A stretch of DNA of 64,000 nucleotides from Escherichia phage EK8: sequence record PQ805430.1; one strand, written 5' to 3'. Of this stretch, positions 3,679 to 35,193 are shown piece after piece. A program made the translations under genes and the position numbers. A model generated the notes under the pieces. The model worked only from the letters and a program-made list of their open reading frames with translations. It was not told the origin of the DNA and did no database searches. Position 1 is the first letter of the stretch, and every line of letters starts with the position of its first letter.

Positions 3679-4134
3679 ATGGCTAATAAAGGTGTTTATA
3701 AAAAACCGGCACCTATCGGTTCTGGTGTAGTAACCACTGATGACGTTATCGCTCAGGGTTACGATTTCGTTTACCTGAAAATGGGCGGTATGCTCAAAGT
3801 TCAGGAAGCAACCGTTGAAGGCGATCTGACTATCAAAGGCGATACTGCCTATGAGCCTCCGGTTCCCCTGAGTCTGTCCACTGACCTGGCTGCAACTAAA
3901 TCTGTTGCTACCGGTGCCCAGTTGACTCTGACCGTTGCTGCTGCAAACGGCTTTGGTGATTACAGCTACCAGTGGTACAAAGACGGTGCTCCGATCTCTG
4001 GCCGTACTGGTGCGTCATTCTCCAAATCTTCTGCGGAAGCTGGCGATGCAGGTGATTATTACTGCGTGGCGACGGATAAGATGGGTGACACTGTTACCTC
4101 TAAAACTTGTAAAGTTACCGTTACTACTGCGTAA
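3679..4134 (+). CDS. Ig-like domain virion protein (possible capsid decoration protein)
   Basis: 151 aa; C-terminal YQWYKDG...GDAGDYYCVATD...KVTV resembles an Ig (I-set/BIG2-like) domain; AGAGG RBS. Confidence 0.55.
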   Translation: MANKGVYKKPAPIGSGVVTTDDVIAQGYDFVYLKMGGMLKVQEATVEGDLTIKGDTAYEPPVPLSLSTDLAATKSVATGAQLTLTVAAANGFGDYSYQWYKDGAPISGRTGASFSKSSAEAGDAGDYYCVATDKMGDTVTSKTCKVTVTTA

Positions 4135-4164
4135 GTGCTTCTACGTTGCTAAATATTGTAGACT

Positions 4165-4188
4165 AGCCCCCATTCGGGGGCTTTTTTA
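4165..4188 (+). terminator. rho-independent terminator closing the plus-strand lysis/structural unit
   Basis: GCCCCC-ATTC-GGGGGC hairpin followed by TTTTTT. Confidence 0.7.
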
Positions 4189-4440
4189 TAACATCTGCAC
4201 CCGGATATCCCGAACGTAGTGGTATCTTAACAGCCTGGCGGCTGTGTCCAGACTCATGAAGGTTCGAAGGCTATCATCGACACTATAGAGATGAAATTCC
4301 TCACCCTTATTGGGTTTACGAAACGCGATGTAATACTCGCTCATCCCGGTCTGTACGATATAGGCTGTCTTAATCTTAAGTCCGGTGATCTCTTTTTCAT
4401 AGATCCGTTTAAATACGGTCATTCTTCCCCCTTGCGGCAA
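4186..4440 (-). CDS. hypothetical protein
   Basis: ORF at distal end of leftward unit; start uncertain. Confidence 0.35.
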   Translation of the reverse strand: MPQGGRMTVFKRIYEKEITGLKIKTAYIVQTGMSEYYIAFRKPNKGEEFHLYSVDDSLRTFMSLDTAARLLRYHYVRDIRVQML

Positions 4441-4646
4441 CGGGAAAAGAATCCCGATTGACCGCCTACTATGTCTACCCTGCGAGCAGGGAGCACAACA
4501 CGGCTGGCCAGACGACCAGCCTTATCTTTCTGACGTTCGGCGTGAAGTGCCGTCCCAGGGGCGTACATGCGCTGCAATTCACGGGAGCATTTCCGGTGGT
4601 TCCCTACAGCTTTGGGCTTACCACAAATCTGACAGTTGAAGGCCAC
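4419..4646 (-). CDS. hypothetical protein with N-terminal CxxC motif
   Basis: MAFNCQICGKPKAVGNHRKC suggests a small zinc-binding module. Confidence 0.35.
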   Translation of the reverse strand: MAFNCQICGKPKAVGNHRKCSRELQRMYAPGTALHAERQKDKAGRLASRVVLPARRVDIVGGQSGFFSRCRKGEE

Positions 4647-7270: not shown

Positions 7271-9982
7271 TTATGCTCCTGTCCACGTACCGTGGGCATC
7301 AACGTATTTAACCCAATCCTTCGGCTTCCACTTTGACGTGTCTTCCGCTGGTTTAGGGCATTTATAGGCTCCGGCCTCCGCCCACTTGATTTTGCGACGG
7401 TAGAGCATTTCAGCAGCTACAGCGTCACGGATCTCCTGCTCACTCAGGTTGTTGTCCAGCGTGATAGGCGTAGCCCAGTTCGGCCAATAGAGGTCGAGGT
7501 TGGCGGGCAACGGTACACGAGGGTCAGCAATCTCAGGCAGACCTTTCCAGGCCATTTCTTCGATCAGATGATCATTGGCGAATTTAACCGCTGTAATGTC
7601 TCTGCGAATAAGCAGGTAGATAGCATCGTGGATGAGTGCTACGGGGAGAATGTCATTACGGAAGGGACTTGCCCACACCTTCTGCATAAAAGCGTTTACA
7701 GCTCGGTTGGTGAGCAATCCGTATGACTGACCACTCACTGCGTTGCCGAGGCTCCGGCCTTCGGCCTCTGCCTCGCGCATCGTGCGTGAGCTTCCCATGA
7801 CGGAACGTTTGAGTAATGGTGTACGGATACGGAGGCCAAAGGCTCCGGTGCCATAACCATCCTCGGTTGCTTTCTGGATCTTGCCCTGTACCCACTTGCC
7901 CGATACTTCGTAGAGCTTGTGGAAGTTTTCTTCGATCCGCTGAGCTTCTTCTTTCGAGAAGCCGCAGTTCTTGACCAGGGTAAGCCAGGTGCCCAGATAT
8001 TGCAGAGCAAACGACACGGGCTTGGACTGACCACGCTCAGCTTTAAACTCTTCCTGGATTCGGTTAATCCCCTCAACGGTGTTCGGCAGGTGAGCAAATT
8101 TCTCCGGCCAGTATGCGTAGGTACGCATGGAGTGAGGGTCATACCCGTCCGTAAAGACTTTAATCTTGTTCGGATCCTGGGTGAGCAGAGCATTGATACG
8201 GTCTTCCAGAGCATTGAAGTCAGCCCCGGCAAAGATCCATCCATCGGGTGCCGAGAAGATGTATTTAATCAGCTTACCGAATGTAGAACCGGATGGGAGG
8301 TTTTGCAGGTTAGGATCTGACGAACTCAACCGCCCGGACAACGTACCGCCGAGGTTAAAGCAACCATGCAGATACCAGCGACCGTTACCTTTGTCGAAGC
8401 CAGCTTCAAACGCCGGAATGAACGACGACAAGATTTTGGAAACCTTGTTGTAGTCGATCAGTGCCCGCAGTAGAGCTTTGGCCTCTTCCGTCTTAGCATG
8501 GAACTCCAGCTTATCGATGGTGTCCGATGCAGCCGATGGCTGTTTGGTTTTGGTACGCTCAATCACCGGTAGCTGCATCACATCGTAAAGAAGGATGGCT
8601 ACCTGTTGATTACTGCCTGGGTTGAATTGAATGTGGCTAAAGTGCTCCAGCGGGTGCTGTTTCGTCTTGAGCTTGGCATTCGCAGCAACCATAGTGTTGG
8701 TCTGAATGATCTTCTCAGCCTGCTTCACGAAGCGGGTGCCACGCATTAACTGAATAGCGGCATTGAGGCCAGCCTCCAGCTTCTGTCTGGCTTCCTTGAT
8801 CTTCTCCGGTATCATTGGCATACCGGTAAGTTCGATTTGCAGGATGGTTTTCAACGACGGCAGGAATTGCTCTTTGTACAGCTTAAGCTGCCCATCCCGT
8901 ACCATGATCGGATAATACTTCTCCTTCACGTACATCGTTGACATGGTGTCAATGACGTTGTACTGGAGCAGTTCCGGCAACGGGATCGCCATGATGTTGT
9001 TGATATCGTCTTTGGCCCAGTTCCCGGCGAACTCGTGAGCCAGGGTTTTCAAGCCCAGTTCATTACCCGCAGTGGAGTTGGTAGCCAGATACGCGATGAG
9101 CTTGGTATCGTCGATGTTCTTGGTTAGGACTTCCAGACCTTCCAACAACCCGGCATTATCCAGAGGATCTGCCATATACAGGTTGTAGATGAGCACCTTG
9201 ATATCGTACCCGCCGTGGTGATAAACAACCTTACCGTTGTACGCTTCGAAGAACTTTTTCAGCTTATGGCGGAAGTAAGGATCGAAGATCCTGACGTTCT
9301 CTCCATTCTGCTGTATCAGGTCACAACGCATCCCGATACCACCAGTGGTATCTTTACTGAATGAGATCGTGCCGATACCGGCTTTAAACGGGTGCAGACT
9401 GAAAGTCTCAAGGTCAACTGCGACCTCATCCCACTTCATGATTTCGGCAAATGCCTTATCAATCTCACTGTCCGTTATCGGATAGTAAGCCCATTTCAGA
9501 ATGTCGTTACCCAGTGCCTCATACGTCCCTTTGAGGCTGGAAGCCAGGGTCTTAATGGATAAGTCCAGCTTTTCAGACACTGCCGGGTTATACGTCAGAG
9601 CCTGATAGTTGATGCCCAGGGTTACCTGGATATCTTCGTAGCCGGGGATTGCACACGGGAGCATGTAGCCTAATTGAGCCTCAGCCTTCGTATTCTTGGT
9701 CAAGACCTTGAAGTAGTTGGAGTCGGCACAATACACATGCTTGGTTTGCAGTTTCTTTAATGCTGGGAGTAGCTGTTCGAGGTACTTCTTGATATGCCCG
9801 ACAGGTGCTTTGTTATTGGGCTGATAGTCCAGCGTGAATACCACTAAATTCTCAGCTTTATAACCACTATCTTCCAGGGGATCAACATAGAAACGTTTTA
9901 TCTCAGATGGCTGCAATGCTGCCTCTTTGATAAGGATCGCCGTTTCATACGTTGGCCTGGTGGCATAAATGATGTGTCTCAT
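7271..9982 (-). CDS. DNA polymerase, family A, with 3'-5' exonuclease domain
   Basis: Exo motif VAVDLETFSL; pol motif A DFNALEDR; motif B RGQSKPVSFALQYLG; motif C LIHDAIYLL. Confidence 0.9.
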   Translation of the reverse strand: MRHIIYATRPTYETAILIKEAALQPSEIKRFYVDPLEDSGYKAENLVVFTLDYQPNNKAPVGHIKKYLEQLLPALKKLQTKHVYCADSNYFKVLTKNTKAEAQLGYMLPCAIPGYEDIQVTLGINYQALTYNPAVSEKLDLSIKTLASSLKGTYEALGNDILKWAYYPITDSEIDKAFAEIMKWDEVAVDLETFSLHPFKAGIGTISFSKDTTGGIGMRCDLIQQNGENVRIFDPYFRHKLKKFFEAYNGKVVYHHGGYDIKVLIYNLYMADPLDNAGLLEGLEVLTKNIDDTKLIAYLATNSTAGNELGLKTLAHEFAGNWAKDDINNIMAIPLPELLQYNVIDTMSTMYVKEKYYPIMVRDGQLKLYKEQFLPSLKTILQIELTGMPMIPEKIKEARQKLEAGLNAAIQLMRGTRFVKQAEKIIQTNTMVAANAKLKTKQHPLEHFSHIQFNPGSNQQVAILLYDVMQLPVIERTKTKQPSAASDTIDKLEFHAKTEEAKALLRALIDYNKVSKILSSFIPAFEAGFDKGNGRWYLHGCFNLGGTLSGRLSSSDPNLQNLPSGSTFGKLIKYIFSAPDGWIFAGADFNALEDRINALLTQDPNKIKVFTDGYDPHSMRTYAYWPEKFAHLPNTVEGINRIQEEFKAERGQSKPVSFALQYLGTWLTLVKNCGFSKEEAQRIEENFHKLYEVSGKWVQGKIQKATEDGYGTGAFGLRIRTPLLKRSVMGSSRTMREAEAEGRSLGNAVSGQSYGLLTNRAVNAFMQKVWASPFRNDILPVALIHDAIYLLIRRDITAVKFANDHLIEEMAWKGLPEIADPRVPLPANLDLYWPNWATPITLDNNLSEQEIRDAVAAEMLYRRKIKWAEAGAYKCPKPAEDTSKWKPKDWVKYVDAHGTWTGA

Positions 9983-32471: not shown

Positions 32472-33026
32472 TTATGCACGGATGACAAGTTGCATGTCTG
32501 GTACAGTCAAAGCAGCGTTCGTGTCCTGCACGTAGACTGCGTTATGTGGGTCACCCTCTTCCAGTGTCTTCTGTAACTTTTGACGACCACCATACGCATA
32601 TCCCTGGGCCATATAGAACAGAGTACCATCAGGTAGGTCACCAAACCGCTCCACACGCGGTAAATCGCTTGCACCTACATCAACTACAGGCAGATTGAGT
32701 TCAGTCGCTCTGTGAGCGATACAGGCGCTTTTAGAGGGATTGACCATCTCGCTACGCTCAATGGTCGCTTCGCTGCACTTCATGCAATTACAAGCATCAC
32801 CACATACAGATAAGTCAGTAAGTGGTTTGATTGGACGACAGAACTCAATAACATCTGACCAGCCATCTACAGGCTCATTATCACCGTGGAACAGTGTGAT
32901 GTAGTGGAAGTCAGATTCACGCTGTCCTAACAGCCATGCGTATACAGATGCTTTATCTTCAAACTCTTTCTCTGTCGAGTGAGTTGCATCAAAGGTCAGA
33001 TAGTCCAGTACGAATAACGTAGTCAT
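32472..33026 (-). CDS. first early protein (Cys-rich)
   Basis: ATG 33026 with GGAG RBS (track start 33095 alternative); CGDACNCMKCSE Cys cluster; first gene of leftward unit. Confidence 0.5.
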   Translation of the reverse strand: MTTLFVLDYLTFDATHSTEKEFEDKASVYAWLLGQRESDFHYITLFHGDNEPVDGWSDVIEFCRPIKPLTDLSVCGDACNCMKCSEATIERSEMVNPSKSACIAHRATELNLPVVDVGASDLPRVERFGDLPDGTLFYMAQGYAYGGRQKLQKTLEEGDPHNAVYVQDTNAALTVPDMQLVIRA

Positions 33027-33122
33027 AGTATGTCTCCAATAAGTTAAGTGTATTACTTCACTTAAAGTGCTATGCACTACTACCGGTCGTAACACTACGG
33101 TACTACGTACCTACGTGTTACT

Positions 33123-33174
33123 GACTAACCAATACTTCGTACTACGCTTCGCTACGTACTCGTATTGGTTAGTC
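33123..33174. repeat. perfect 13-bp inverted repeat flanking a 26-nt TACG-rich core
   Basis: GACTAACCAATAC (33123-33135) and GTATTGGTTAGTC (33162-33174); spacer TTCGTACTACGCTTCGCTACGTACTC. Confidence 0.6.
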
Positions 33175-33202
33175 TTACATCCCTAGTTATGTATACACAT
33201 AC

Positions 33203-33384
33203 TAATAGTAAGGTTATTAGATATAAGGTAGATATGAGTTATAGATATAGGATAGGTATAGGTATAGAGATAGTAGTTGATAGGGTATAGGTAGAGATAA
33301 GTGATATAGATATAGATAAAGTAGTAGTAAGAGTAAGTAGTAACAAAGTAGTAAGTAAGTAGAGATAGTAGTAACAGGTAGATA
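33203..33384. repeat. strand-asymmetric low-complexity tract almost devoid of C on the plus strand
   Basis: ~180 nt of GTA/TAG/GATA-type units with only two C residues by manual count. Confidence 0.6.
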
Positions 33385-33461
33385 CTAAACATAAGTAAGT
33401 AGTGTTTTACTCAGTAAATACATCCTAATCTCTGTCAACCTTTTCCACTAATATAAATTTC

Positions 33462-33476
33462 CGATAAGGGTTATCG
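33462..33476 (-). promoter_or_regulatory. hairpin with 3-nt purine loop (candidate promoter/regulatory element)
   Basis: CGATAA-GGG-TTATCG upstream of leftward early unit. Confidence 0.25.
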
Positions 33477-33610
33477 ATAAAAGTGGTATAGGAAACTTAC
33501 TGTATGATTTCTGACCGTCATACCTAGCGCGAGTAAAAGCTGTAAAGTTTTGGTAACTTATAGCGCGCCTTACTGTCTCAGTGGTGAGTTGTGTAATGTG
33601 TAATTGTGTA

Positions 33611-33641
33611 GAAAAGAAATAGCCTACTCCGAAGAGTAGGC
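33611..33641 (-). terminator. rho-independent terminator (minus strand)
   Basis: 8-bp stem GCCTACTC/GAGTAGGC, CGAA loop, A-run on plus side. Confidence 0.6.
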
Positions 33642-33648
33642 ATTGATG

Positions 33649-33903
33649 TTATGCAGTAGCAGTAGCTGATGCAGCCAGAGCTTTGACTTGGTTATCAAGC
33701 TCAGACTTAGCTGCGTTGTAAATCATCTGGTCTTTGATTTCGATGAGTTCACCGAAGCGTTTAGCTTTGTTCTCTGCTACCTTAGCCAGCTCATCACCAG
33801 CAGTAGCCAGACGATTGACTGCGGTTGCAGTTGTGGTGACAGTGGATACGGTTGCAACTACAGCACCAGTGAGAGCAGCGAACAGACCTTGTGGTTGGGA
33901 CAT
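33649..33903 (-). CDS. hypothetical protein (84 aa, Ala/Thr-rich)
   Basis: stand-alone ORF with its own terminator inside the switch region. Confidence 0.45.
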   Translation of the reverse strand: MSQPQGLFAALTGAVVATVSTVTTTATAVNRLATAGDELAKVAENKAKRFGELIEIKDQMIYNAAKSELDNQVKALAASATATA

Positions 33904-34217
33904 GAGTAATACTCCATAGCTATTGGATTAATGTAAGGGATGAAGGCATCTCACCTTCAAGACTCTGAAGCCTCCCACATCGCAGAGCTACGATTGTGGG
34001 TGCATACATGTGATTAATCTCAAGCAGACAATGTATGAAAACACTGAATGAGATGGATACGTATATCCATATGATGGCCTATGGCCTGAATTGTGTAAGG
34101 CGTAGTAAGAATCCTTTTTCAGCCAGCACTATGGAGGGGGTATCCACCCAAAGCTACAGCCAGAGTAGTAAGTTGAGCACTCGTACCTAAATTAAAAAAT
34201 TTTATAAAAGTTTTCCC

Positions 34218-34418
34218 TTAAACTTTTTTATCTCTATCCAGCGGAGCTATCCTGTTTACCCACCCTTCAAACTTATCCCTGAGTTTATCCATACCGTTCC
34301 AAATACTTTCAAAGATATAAGCAAGCACTAACGCTATACCACCCACCAACCATATCACTAACCAAACTGGCAGCAGAGAGATACGGATAGCCTTGCTCTT
34401 GGTACTCATGCGATACAT
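34218..34418 (-). CDS. small membrane protein
   Basis: 66 aa; hydrophobic LLPVWLVIWLVGGIALVLAYIF. Confidence 0.4.
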   Translation of the reverse strand: MYRMSTKSKAIRISLLPVWLVIWLVGGIALVLAYIFESIWNGMDKLRDKFEGWVNRIAPLDRDKKV

Positions 34419-34506
34419 AAAATTTTCCTCATAAAATTTTTAAAAATTGCCCAACCTTTCGACCCTATTTATACTCTGGCTTAGAACCTATAGGGAGACT
34501 ATATCA

Positions 34507-35193
34507 ATGGCATTGCTCGATTTAAATACACTCAAAGCTGCGTTGCCTGACAACATCCGTAAGACTATCACTGATGAAGTGTTGAATGGGATTAACGCTG
34601 CTGTGGCTGACCCCCAGTTTTACGAGTATTACCGTAACAACCTGTTGAGCTATGGCCATGTGCTGAAAGAAGGGAAGTTTACGGTTAAGCAGTACAGTGC
34701 AGCAGTCCGGTATGTGTCGTATAAGCTGATGGGCTTAACGAACCAGGAAGCGTGGATGAAGACCTTCCCGGACAAGTATGCGTACTTCGCTCAGAAGGGC
34801 ACCAGTGCAAAAGACATTTCAAGTTACGTCCATGCGTACCATAATACTAAACTGGTAAACCTGGTAATGGAGCAGTCGCTTGTTCCTGTGCATGTGGTAG
34901 GCCGTGACCTGTTCTGGAAAGCTCTCAACGTTCAGGCTGAGTTAATGGTCAGTGCTACCAGTGAAAAGGTACGCAGCGATGCTGCGAACAGCGTACTGAA
35001 CACGTTGCGCCCGCCTGAGACTAAGAAGATGGAACTGGATATCAACCACAAGGACGATGGTACGCTGGAGGCGTTGCGTGCTGCTACGCAGGCTCTGGTA
35101 GACCAGCAATCGAATGCGATTGCTAGTGGGACAGTAACAGCAGGGCAGGTGGCCGCGTACCGTGTCATTGAAGCGGAGAAACTCGATGAGTAA
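34507..35193 (+). CDS. hypothetical protein, possible terminase small subunit (position only)
   Basis: ATG 34507 with GGGAG RBS (track start 34447 is TTG); first gene of rightward late unit, upstream of terminase large subunit. Confidence 0.35.
   Translation: MALLDLNTLKAALPDNIRKTITDEVLNGINAAVADPQFYEYYRNNLLSYGHVLKEGKFTVKQYSAAVRYVSYKLMGLTNQEAWMKTFPDKYAYFAQKGTSAKDISSYVHAYHNTKLVNLVMEQSLVPVHVVGRDLFWKALNVQAELMVSATSEKVRSDAANSVLNTLRPPETKKMELDINHKDDGTLEALRAATQALVDQQSNAIASGTVTAGQVAAYRVIEAEKLDE

Follow-up and report, generated by a model that had tools for sequence, protein, structure and literature searches.

A cytosine-depleted short-repeat tract at the predicted inner boundary of the terminal repeat in the N4-like Escherichia phage EK8

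What is the role of a DNA tract that almost entirely lacks cytosine on one strand? Such a tract occupies positions 33203–33384 (+) of a 64,000-nt stretch of Escherichia phage EK8 (PQ805430.1), the whole of which is referred to here as the 64-kb window. A sequence-only reading had placed it at a switch between early and late transcription, and had offered several structural roles: genome end region, packaging or replication element, or transcription insulator. The nearest sequence records belong to the genus Cbunavirus of the Schitoviridae (Pectobacterium phages CB1, CB3, CB4, Nepra, Possum, and phiA41), at about 86% identity (~84–88%, in patches), in agreement with the N4-like identity proposed at the outset. 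The phage is thus N4-like and close to Cbunavirus; its assembly is permuted and runs in reverse to the standard map of these phages. In the interpretation best supported by sequence comparison, the tract consists of unique sequence flanking the left direct terminal repeat (DTR), and it starts where the DTR is predicted to end. The tract goes unmentioned in the Cbunavirus papers searched.

The 182 nt of the tract contain 78 A, 52 T, 50 G, and only 2 C (positions 33344 and 33375), and the 141 nt from 33203 to 33343 contain no C at all. No other C-free run in the 64-kb window exceeds 44 nt, and A-free, G-free, and T-free runs reach at most 38, 36, and 44 nt. Across all 182-nt segments of the window the mean number of C is 44.3 (s.d. 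6.2), and the tract region alone has 12 or fewer. By our own arithmetic, the chance that a given 141-nt stretch is C-free at a C content of 24.3% is ~0.757^141 (~1e-17), and the tract is therefore not due to chance. The GC skew peaks at +0.9 over the tract, its GC content is 28% vs. ~49% for the window, and 70% of its plus strand is purine. With C depleted on the plus strand, the early-sense (minus) strand is essentially G-less, with a composition of U43 A29 C27 G1 percent; C on this strand is not raised (27% vs. 24% genome-wide).

The GTA/TAG/GATA-type units described from inspection were borne out by k-mer counts, the commonest trinucleotides being TAG (23 occurrences), ATA (21), and GTA (20). 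T is followed by A in 45 of the 52 cases (TA observed/expected 2.0). In the proximal two thirds, Tandem Repeats Finder (TRF) detected imperfect repeats with periods of 6 and 11 (17 and 8.5 copies, 65–66% matches, consensus TAGATA); in the distal third the periods were 4, 7, and 11 (units AGTA and AAGTAGTAACA). The array is degenerate, and its repeat units are all C-free on one strand and in one orientation. Two parts can be distinguished: a sequence-invariant core at 33246–33291 (+), TATAGG.TAGGTATAGGTATA...GATAGTAG.TGATA.GGTA.AGG, and a length-variable distal array of AGTA and GTAGTAAC(A) units at 33296–33403 (+), ending in AAGTAGTG and delimited from TRF and comparison with relatives. As had been claimed, plus-strand stop codons occur in all frames (14, 5, and 18 per 60 codons in frames one to three).

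Several structural explanations were tried on the composition and set aside. Fourier analysis of G, A, T, and GC indicators revealed no 10–11-bp helical period in the tract, so helical phasing (bending or wrapping by gyrase or the small terminase) was rejected; a weak period of 6 lay inside the shuffle range. The fold of the region as single-stranded DNA was no more stable than shuffles (z +0.9), with the tract unpaired and only a nearby 13-bp repeat stable. On this result, extended imperfect pairing of the GTAG-rich tract with the CTAC-rich promoter region into a long hairpin was also rejected. A hairpin promoter within the tract was dismissed because a C-free strand cannot make G–C stems and the tract is unpaired when folded. 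Chi-like function is excluded by composition, since canonical Chi needs C. Cytosine deamination on exposed 3′ tails was rejected as the sole mutational cause: C is replaced mainly by A (43%) rather than T (29%), which we infer to be a poor fit to C-to-T pressure. Rfam gave no match at E ≤ 1 across 32500–35000, and no sigma-70 promoters or terminators were found inside the tract.

The relation of the tract to the genome ends emerges from comparison with CB1. The left end of CB1 consists of a 647-bp “redundant terminal repeat” containing a small membrane-protein gene, followed by a C-poor stretch, “CB1_promoter_1” (an N4-type hairpin), and the early genes. The DTR end in the CB1 and CB4 annotation coincides exactly with the distal edge of the homologous tract, and the homologous inner boundary in the window is 33403|33404. 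By this homology, a DTR of ~766 bp is predicted at 33405–34170, present in the assembly as one collapsed copy, and phage EK8 DNA would end at about 33405 and 34170. The left end is put at 34170|34171 (...CCAGAGTAGTA|AGTTGAGC, within 34136–34173) because position 1 of CB1 aligns there and a poly-C run is shared. The predicted inner DTR boundary, which would also be the right physical genome end, is placed at 33395–33420 from CB1 homology and the skew statistic described below. The assignment to a “genome end region” thus holds in substance. The transcription switch point does not, since the genes on both sides of the tract, the DTR gene (33649–33903) and the first unique early gene, lie on the minus strand, and early and late genes diverge at 33904–34446, ~0.5–1 kb to the right.

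A run of 5–11 C starting ~28–40 nt from the left end is present in N4, LIT1, LUZ7, Pokken, Pylas, Pollock, and CB1. Its counterpart in the window, placed by homology, is G5 on the plus strand at 34136–34140 (C5 in the early sense), 30 nt inside the predicted left end. The run is a candidate for a left-end (terminase) motif conserved across the Schitoviridae.

Tracts in the same position were found in phages of other genera with determined ends. These ends come from run-off sequencing for the Pseudomonas phages LIT1 (DTR 1–655) and LUZ7 (DTR 1–660), and from PhageTerm for the Stenotrophomonas phage Pokken (DTR 1–627). Within the first 2.5–3 kb of each genome, G is most strongly depleted in a stretch that starts 4 nt (LIT1), ~25 nt (LUZ7), and 0 nt (Pokken) after the DTR end, and the G-free tracts have the same polarity as the window tract in standard orientation. 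The final 50 nt of each DTR are G-rich and C-poor. These phages therefore resemble the window in family, in polarity, in a tract position 0–25 nt after the determined DTR end, and in the composition of the DTR end. They differ in that their tracts are shorter (80–130 nt), C-rich rather than A/T-rich (37–39 C vs. 5–10 G per 100 nt in the early sense), not alignable with the window tract, and not beside a predicted hairpin promoter. The layout in Presley is similar. The tracts of LIT1, LUZ7, and Pokken are unannotated and were found in the present analysis.

The change in strand composition at these boundaries was quantified on the early-sense strand as the (G–C) density in 50 nt minus the (G–C) density in the next 100 nt. 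The maximum of this statistic lies within 15 nt of the annotated boundary in six of eight phages: T7 (offset −15 nt), LIT1 (+9 nt), LUZ7 (+13 nt), Pokken (−2 nt), Pylas (+4 nt), and phiAxp-3 (−6 nt). The chance of a maximum within 15 nt of the boundary is ~1.3% per genome. In Presley the boundary is in the top 2.6% of positions without being the maximum. In the 64-kb window, the global maximum is at 33405–33409, coinciding with the boundary homologous to that of CB1.

A C-poor tract lies between the same two anchors in all Cbunavirus-type genomes and in Enterobacter phage SABI, with C-free runs of 70–105 nt and 0–3 C per 100 nt; relatives lacking any comparable tract, which would have argued for a neutral spacer, were thus not encountered in this group. 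In alignment A1 the 46-nt core at 33246–33291 is invariant among phages of Pectobacterium, Kosakonia, and Enterobacter, and the distal part varies in length and units. The proximal part and core are also kept in ten Logan contigs with an identical DTR protein and in one IMG/VR contig (98% TerL identity). Among these contigs the distal arrays differ by indels even where the DTR protein is identical (C-free runs of 100–167 nt), and the first early genes and promoter flanks differ as well. C-poor tracts of TAGG/GTAG units occupy the same place in the Efbeekayvirus phages MIF8 and pKP-BM327-1.2. In an IMG/VR survey of 40 loci found via TerL, in which the most base-depleted 100-nt window was scored, a C-depleted window lay 1.0–4.5 kb upstream of TerL in 12 of the 40 loci vs. 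3.1 expected.

The pattern of variation points to maintained avoidance of C. Variants were compared column by column between the tract and the adjacent DTR-side spacer in a 16-sequence alignment. Purine transitions are frequent in the tract (18 A>G and 13 G>A). T>C changes occurred at 1 of 31 tract T columns vs. 13 of 39 spacer T columns (Fisher p = 0.002), and variants to C made up 5 of 68 variant types in the tract vs. 22 of 87 in the spacer (p = 0.005), a difference that misalignment in a low-complexity array could inflate.

The closest known parallel is T7. It reportedly carries a short-repeat array, “SRL”, just inside the left terminal repetition (Dunn and Studier 1983). On re-examination of the T7 sequence, G-poor CCTAAAG repeats with a 13-nt period directly follow the 160-bp repeat and precede the first promoters; positions 161–400 contain A89 C67 T58 G26, and G is scarcest at position 172 (8 per 100 nt). 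The window shares with T7 a podovirus genome with an exact DTR and a left end that is injected first, a same-orientation array of short repeats running from the inner DTR boundary upstream of the first early promoters, a G-poor early-sense strand, and a skew inversion at the boundary. The two arrays have no sequence similarity (CCTAAAG in T7 vs. TAGRTA hexamers and AGTA/GTAGTAAC units in the window), so that the relation is one of analogy rather than homology. The depleted base amounts to 1% in the window tract vs. 11% in T7. T7 also has a partner array (SRR) before its right repeat, and no such partner was seen in the window. Among the short-repeat arrays found beside the terminal repeats of exact-DTR podoviruses, the tract is best regarded as a new and extreme type.

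The comparison with N4 itself is mixed. N4 is reported to have a single left end but more than one right end (Ohmori et al. 1988, as reviewed in PMC3896407 and PMC3715699). It belongs to the same family and shares the genome plan, with a DTR, a unique left end, early hairpin promoters near that end, and poly-C ~30 nt from it. Heterogeneity of the right ends, as in N4, might be expected if the cut site lay in a repeat array. Unlike the window, the N4 DTR (390–440 bp) ends in gene 1, and neither a C- or G-free tract nor a skew peak is present there. The termini of N4 had been proposed as a yardstick, a role they cannot fill because N4 lacks a tract whereas other genera have one.

These observations suggest a mechanism in which the tract takes part in making the right end. 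In a concatemer the order would be late genes–DTR–tract–early genes, and the inner DTR boundary would be where the right genome end is made. The tract would then most likely be a cis-acting part of an end-formation or packaging signal, positioning or licensing either the right-end cut or a strand-specific nick and the synthesis that duplicates the DTR, as the N4-like counterpart of the T7 SRL array. Selection would act on strand composition (one strand with no C, the other with no G, no self-pairing) more than on a fixed sequence. The element would probably be read strand-specifically or single-stranded, because composition and polarity, rather than sequence, are conserved across genera. We put the probability that the tract acts in cis in forming or packaging the genome end, as an analogue of T7 SRL, at roughly 0.4. 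Such a pac-like role is inferred from the predicted position of the cut site, which homology and the skew signature both back; packaging, replication, and insulator functions are inseparable from sequence alone. A bolder form of the proposal, of low probability, is that the inner DTR boundary of exact-DTR podoviruses from two families (T7 and several genera of Schitoviridae) is itself specified by an abrupt switch in strand composition (early-sense G-rich and C-poor, then G-free). Recognition of the switch would take place on nicked or single-stranded DNA, while the right end is cut or the DTR duplicated, and the window tract would be its most extreme known form.

A role of this kind would bear on a process that is poorly understood even in T7, namely how exact-DTR phages define and duplicate their terminal repeats. 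For N4-like phages, the sole classic datum is the single left end with several right ends. If the compositional signature marks the inner DTR boundary within ~15 nt, as in most phages tested, it would be a practical predictor of ends in permuted or metagenomic assemblies. The signature would also offer a concrete way into the study of how ends form, how DNA enters the cell, and how early promoters are activated, and it flags spurious open reading frame (ORF) calls made by pipelines inside such tracts.

A number of observations weigh against a role in end formation. The DTR limits of Cbunavirus phages are read-depth estimates on which two groups of authors differ: the GenBank annotations of CB1/CB4 and CB3/Possum are offset by 54 nt at both ends on essentially identical sequences, the CB3/Possum boundary being further in. 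At least one of these pairs has misplaced limits, because such estimates stand 54 nt apart on near-identical sequence. The skew statistic was devised after LIT1, LUZ7, and Pokken had been inspected, and only T7, Pylas, phiAxp-3, Presley, Pollock, and the window serve as after-the-fact tests; among these, Pollock shows no skew peak at its boundary. N4 and JWAlpha have DTRs with neither tract nor skew peak there, and the tract is therefore no universal requirement of Schitoviridae packaging. In the IMG/VR survey the signal is strong (z < −4.8) only at TerL identities of at least 70%. No array comparable to the tract was found at 34171–34450, which holds a 66-aa ORF and AT-rich palindromes. To our knowledge, the function of the T7 array is not established, and the analogy therefore transfers position and not mechanism; a literature search on T7 SRL found nothing usable.

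In favour of a role in end formation, the distal array contains a varying copy number of a unit resembling the predicted left-end sequence, and CAAAGTAGTAAGT at 33344 matches CAGAGTAGTAAGT at 34161 at 12 of 13 positions. The left-end motif has 3 matches in the tract vs. 1.24 expected, a number reached by 15 of 100 shuffles and not significant alone. Its recurrence was accordingly dropped as a cut-site signature. The only words that the two exact junctions of LUZ7 have in common are of the GTAC type. Assembly contig ends were tried as a proxy for physical ends and rejected. One Logan contig stops at window-equivalent 33424, where strain variation also starts, and is uninformative because a break in the assembly graph would account for it just as well as a true end.

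The foremost alternative to a role in end formation, though an unlikely one, makes the tract an upstream activator of the first early promoter. Under gyrase supercoiling of the first ~1 kb entering the cell, the tract would melt and load the host single-stranded DNA-binding protein (SSB), the bubble would spread into the hairpin promoter, and injected virion RNA polymerase would start there and draw the genome into the cell. This fits the biology of N4, whose early promoters depend on gyrase, supercoiling, and E. coli SSB and whose DNA is injected leading end first, and it fits the placement of the tract 25–190 nt upstream of the GGTAC-TAC-GTACC hairpin in all Cbunavirus-type relatives. Its low GC content, richness in TpA, and unpaired state as single-stranded DNA are in keeping with easy melting, but AT-richness leaves the exclusion of C from one strand unexplained. 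Easily melted DNA of 180 bp would probably also compete with hairpin extrusion for superhelical energy, and N4, where the mechanism was worked out, has no tract. The tracts of LIT1, LUZ7, and Pokken are neither AT-rich nor beside predicted hairpin promoters. The tract appears independent of a promoter, because the predicted hairpin promoters of LUZ7 precede genes 1, 12, and 13 and not the gene after its tract, and the Pokken tract runs directly into a ribosome-binding site. Next in likelihood, and again improbable, is action as RNA: a G-less, pyrimidine-rich, unstructured early-sense transcript of ~180 nt could serve as a Rho-loading (rut-like) insulator behind a terminator, or as an unstructured leader where a gene follows directly. 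A G-less RNA excludes AUG, GUG, and UUG starts as well as Shine–Dalgarno sequences, and its antisense carries stops in all three frames. If transcribed in the early sense, the tract would resemble rut sites as a long unstructured G-poor RNA of at least 80 nt with C well above G; it is unpaired in the RNA fold, and an intrinsic terminator lies ~230 nt upstream. The C-rich, G-free early-sense tracts of LIT1, LUZ7, and Pokken, the last ending at a ribosome-binding site, also suit this explanation. In contrast to rut sites, C is not enriched in the window tract, and nothing about a rut site would tie it to a DTR boundary, so the start of the tract within a few nucleotides of that boundary would be left unexplained. 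In the Cbunavirus group, moreover, a good terminator precedes the tract and the predicted promoter comes after it; an early-sense transcript of the tract is hypothetical, and an insulator of this type would require Rho to act on the T7-like polymerases of the phage.

Less likely again is a spacer of low complexity with no function. In this view C-free units once formed a micro- or minisatellite that has since decayed, growing and shrinking by slippage in a tolerated non-coding gap and conserved through recent common ancestry only. The degenerate periods of 4, 6, 7, and 11 and the changes in distal length between near-identical phages are what slippage would leave, the tract has no helical periodicity, Rfam match, or promoter-like site, and N4 manages without one. 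Misalignment or unit shuffling in a C-free array could even mimic C-avoidance. Such a spacer is hard to reconcile with a 46-nt core that is invariant over three host genera while nearby non-coding DNA and adjacent genes vary, with the depletion of T>C relative to the flank (p = 0.002), and with the presence of non-homologous tracts of the same polarity at the corresponding site in LIT1, LUZ7, Pokken, Presley, and T7. A replication element is the least probable of the four. Here a purine-rich, C-less plus-sense transcript would form a stable RNA–DNA hybrid on the pyrimidine-rich strand and prime DNA synthesis, or the tract would be an origin unwinding element near the left end. N4 replication in vivo is reported to need the virion RNA polymerase. 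The purine content of the plus strand, the low GC content, and a local minimum of cumulative GC skew at 33100–33250 are compatible with this role, but no plus-sense promoter was found and the hairpin promoter faces the other way. The tract contains no iterons or initiator-type sites, the tracts of other genera are not AT-rich, and a literature search found no N4 origin located here.

The composition of the tract also affects gene calling. The ORF at 33183–33392 (−), which the sequence-only reading had dismissed as a low-complexity artefact, encodes 69 aa of a Tyr/Leu/Ile repeat product. It is very probably not a protein-coding gene, because a G-less strand allows only TAA as a stop, no G-containing ribosome-binding site lies upstream (no G was found upstream of its ATG), and close relatives differ in the region by 85- and 110-nt indels. 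Gene callers place ORFs over other single-base-free tracts, with 71-aa calls in six relatives (L087, L088, and L092–L095) and calls over G-free tracts in Pokken (CPT_Pokken_002, L103 623–727) and Presley (Presley_2, L106 443–661). Such calls are probably spurious, again because TAA is the sole possible stop on a G-less strand.

On the early side, the tract is followed by a promoter and a variable gene. A predicted N4-type virion RNA polymerase hairpin promoter of the first unique early gene lies at 33089–33121 (−), with the hairpin GGTAC-TAC-GTACC (33099–33111) on the template (+) strand and a central purine in the loop. The outer stem covaries among close relatives (L088 and L091), GGTAC/GTACC being replaced by GTGTGTAC/GTACACAC around a constant GTAC-TAC-GTAC core, which supports a real hairpin. 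The gene itself (32472–33026, −) encodes 184 aa, with its ATG at 33026 and a GGAGA ribosome-binding site. In phages with an identical DTR protein (L087–L091), the first early genes encode 184, 109 + 60, 129, and 195 aa, and a mosaic junction lies directly on the early side of the tract and promoter (~3730–4550 in standard orientation).

The perfect inverted repeat reported next to the tract was found as described, with 13-bp arms at 33124–33136 and 33162–33174 and a 25-nt loop (GACTAACCAATAC ... GTATTGGTTAGTC). The nearest relatives (L016 and L087–L094) do not carry this repeat, which is an insertion. A similar small palindromic insert, GACTACCT...CGCTACGCTCG...AGGTAGTC, lies at another site inside the CB3 and CB4 tracts and is absent from CB1. 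The 13-bp insert looks like a small mobile palindromic element.

On the other side, a spacer of ~200 nt separates the tract from TGTGTAA repeats. It holds the most conserved non-coding block of the region, located in the predicted DTR (33512–33580, GACCGTCATACCTAGCGCGAG...TAGCGCGCCTTACTGTC), which contains a TAGCGCG direct repeat ~37 nt apart and is nearly invariant even in Enterobacter phage SABI. The TGTGTAA-type heptamers follow at 33585–33612 (+), then an intrinsic terminator hairpin and T-run at 33622–33641 (−), downstream of the small DTR gene (33649–33903, −). This gene encodes 84 aa; its homologues are annotated as putative membrane proteins, and no homology of the product to N4 gp1 was detected. 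Three to four TGTGTAA/TGTGTAG heptamers directly adjoin the DTR-gene terminator and are kept in relatives down to 53% TerL identity (L011 ~2078–2112, L012 ~2000–2035, L022 ~760–790, L053 ~810–835, and L078 ~7755–7800), so that their sequence is conserved more widely than that of the C-free tract.

Just outside the predicted left end, a 66-aa ORF (34218–34418, −) precedes the gp69-like small terminase gene (34507–35193, +) and then TerL. A mirror tract beyond the DTR was considered here and rejected, since the G-poor zone at 34184–34450 corresponds to this small minus-strand ORF. The ORF is flanked, outside the predicted cut, by AT-rich palindromic and direct repeats (TTAAAAAATTTTATAAAAGTTTT, and CATAAAATTTT twice) at 34192–34214 and 34416–34445.

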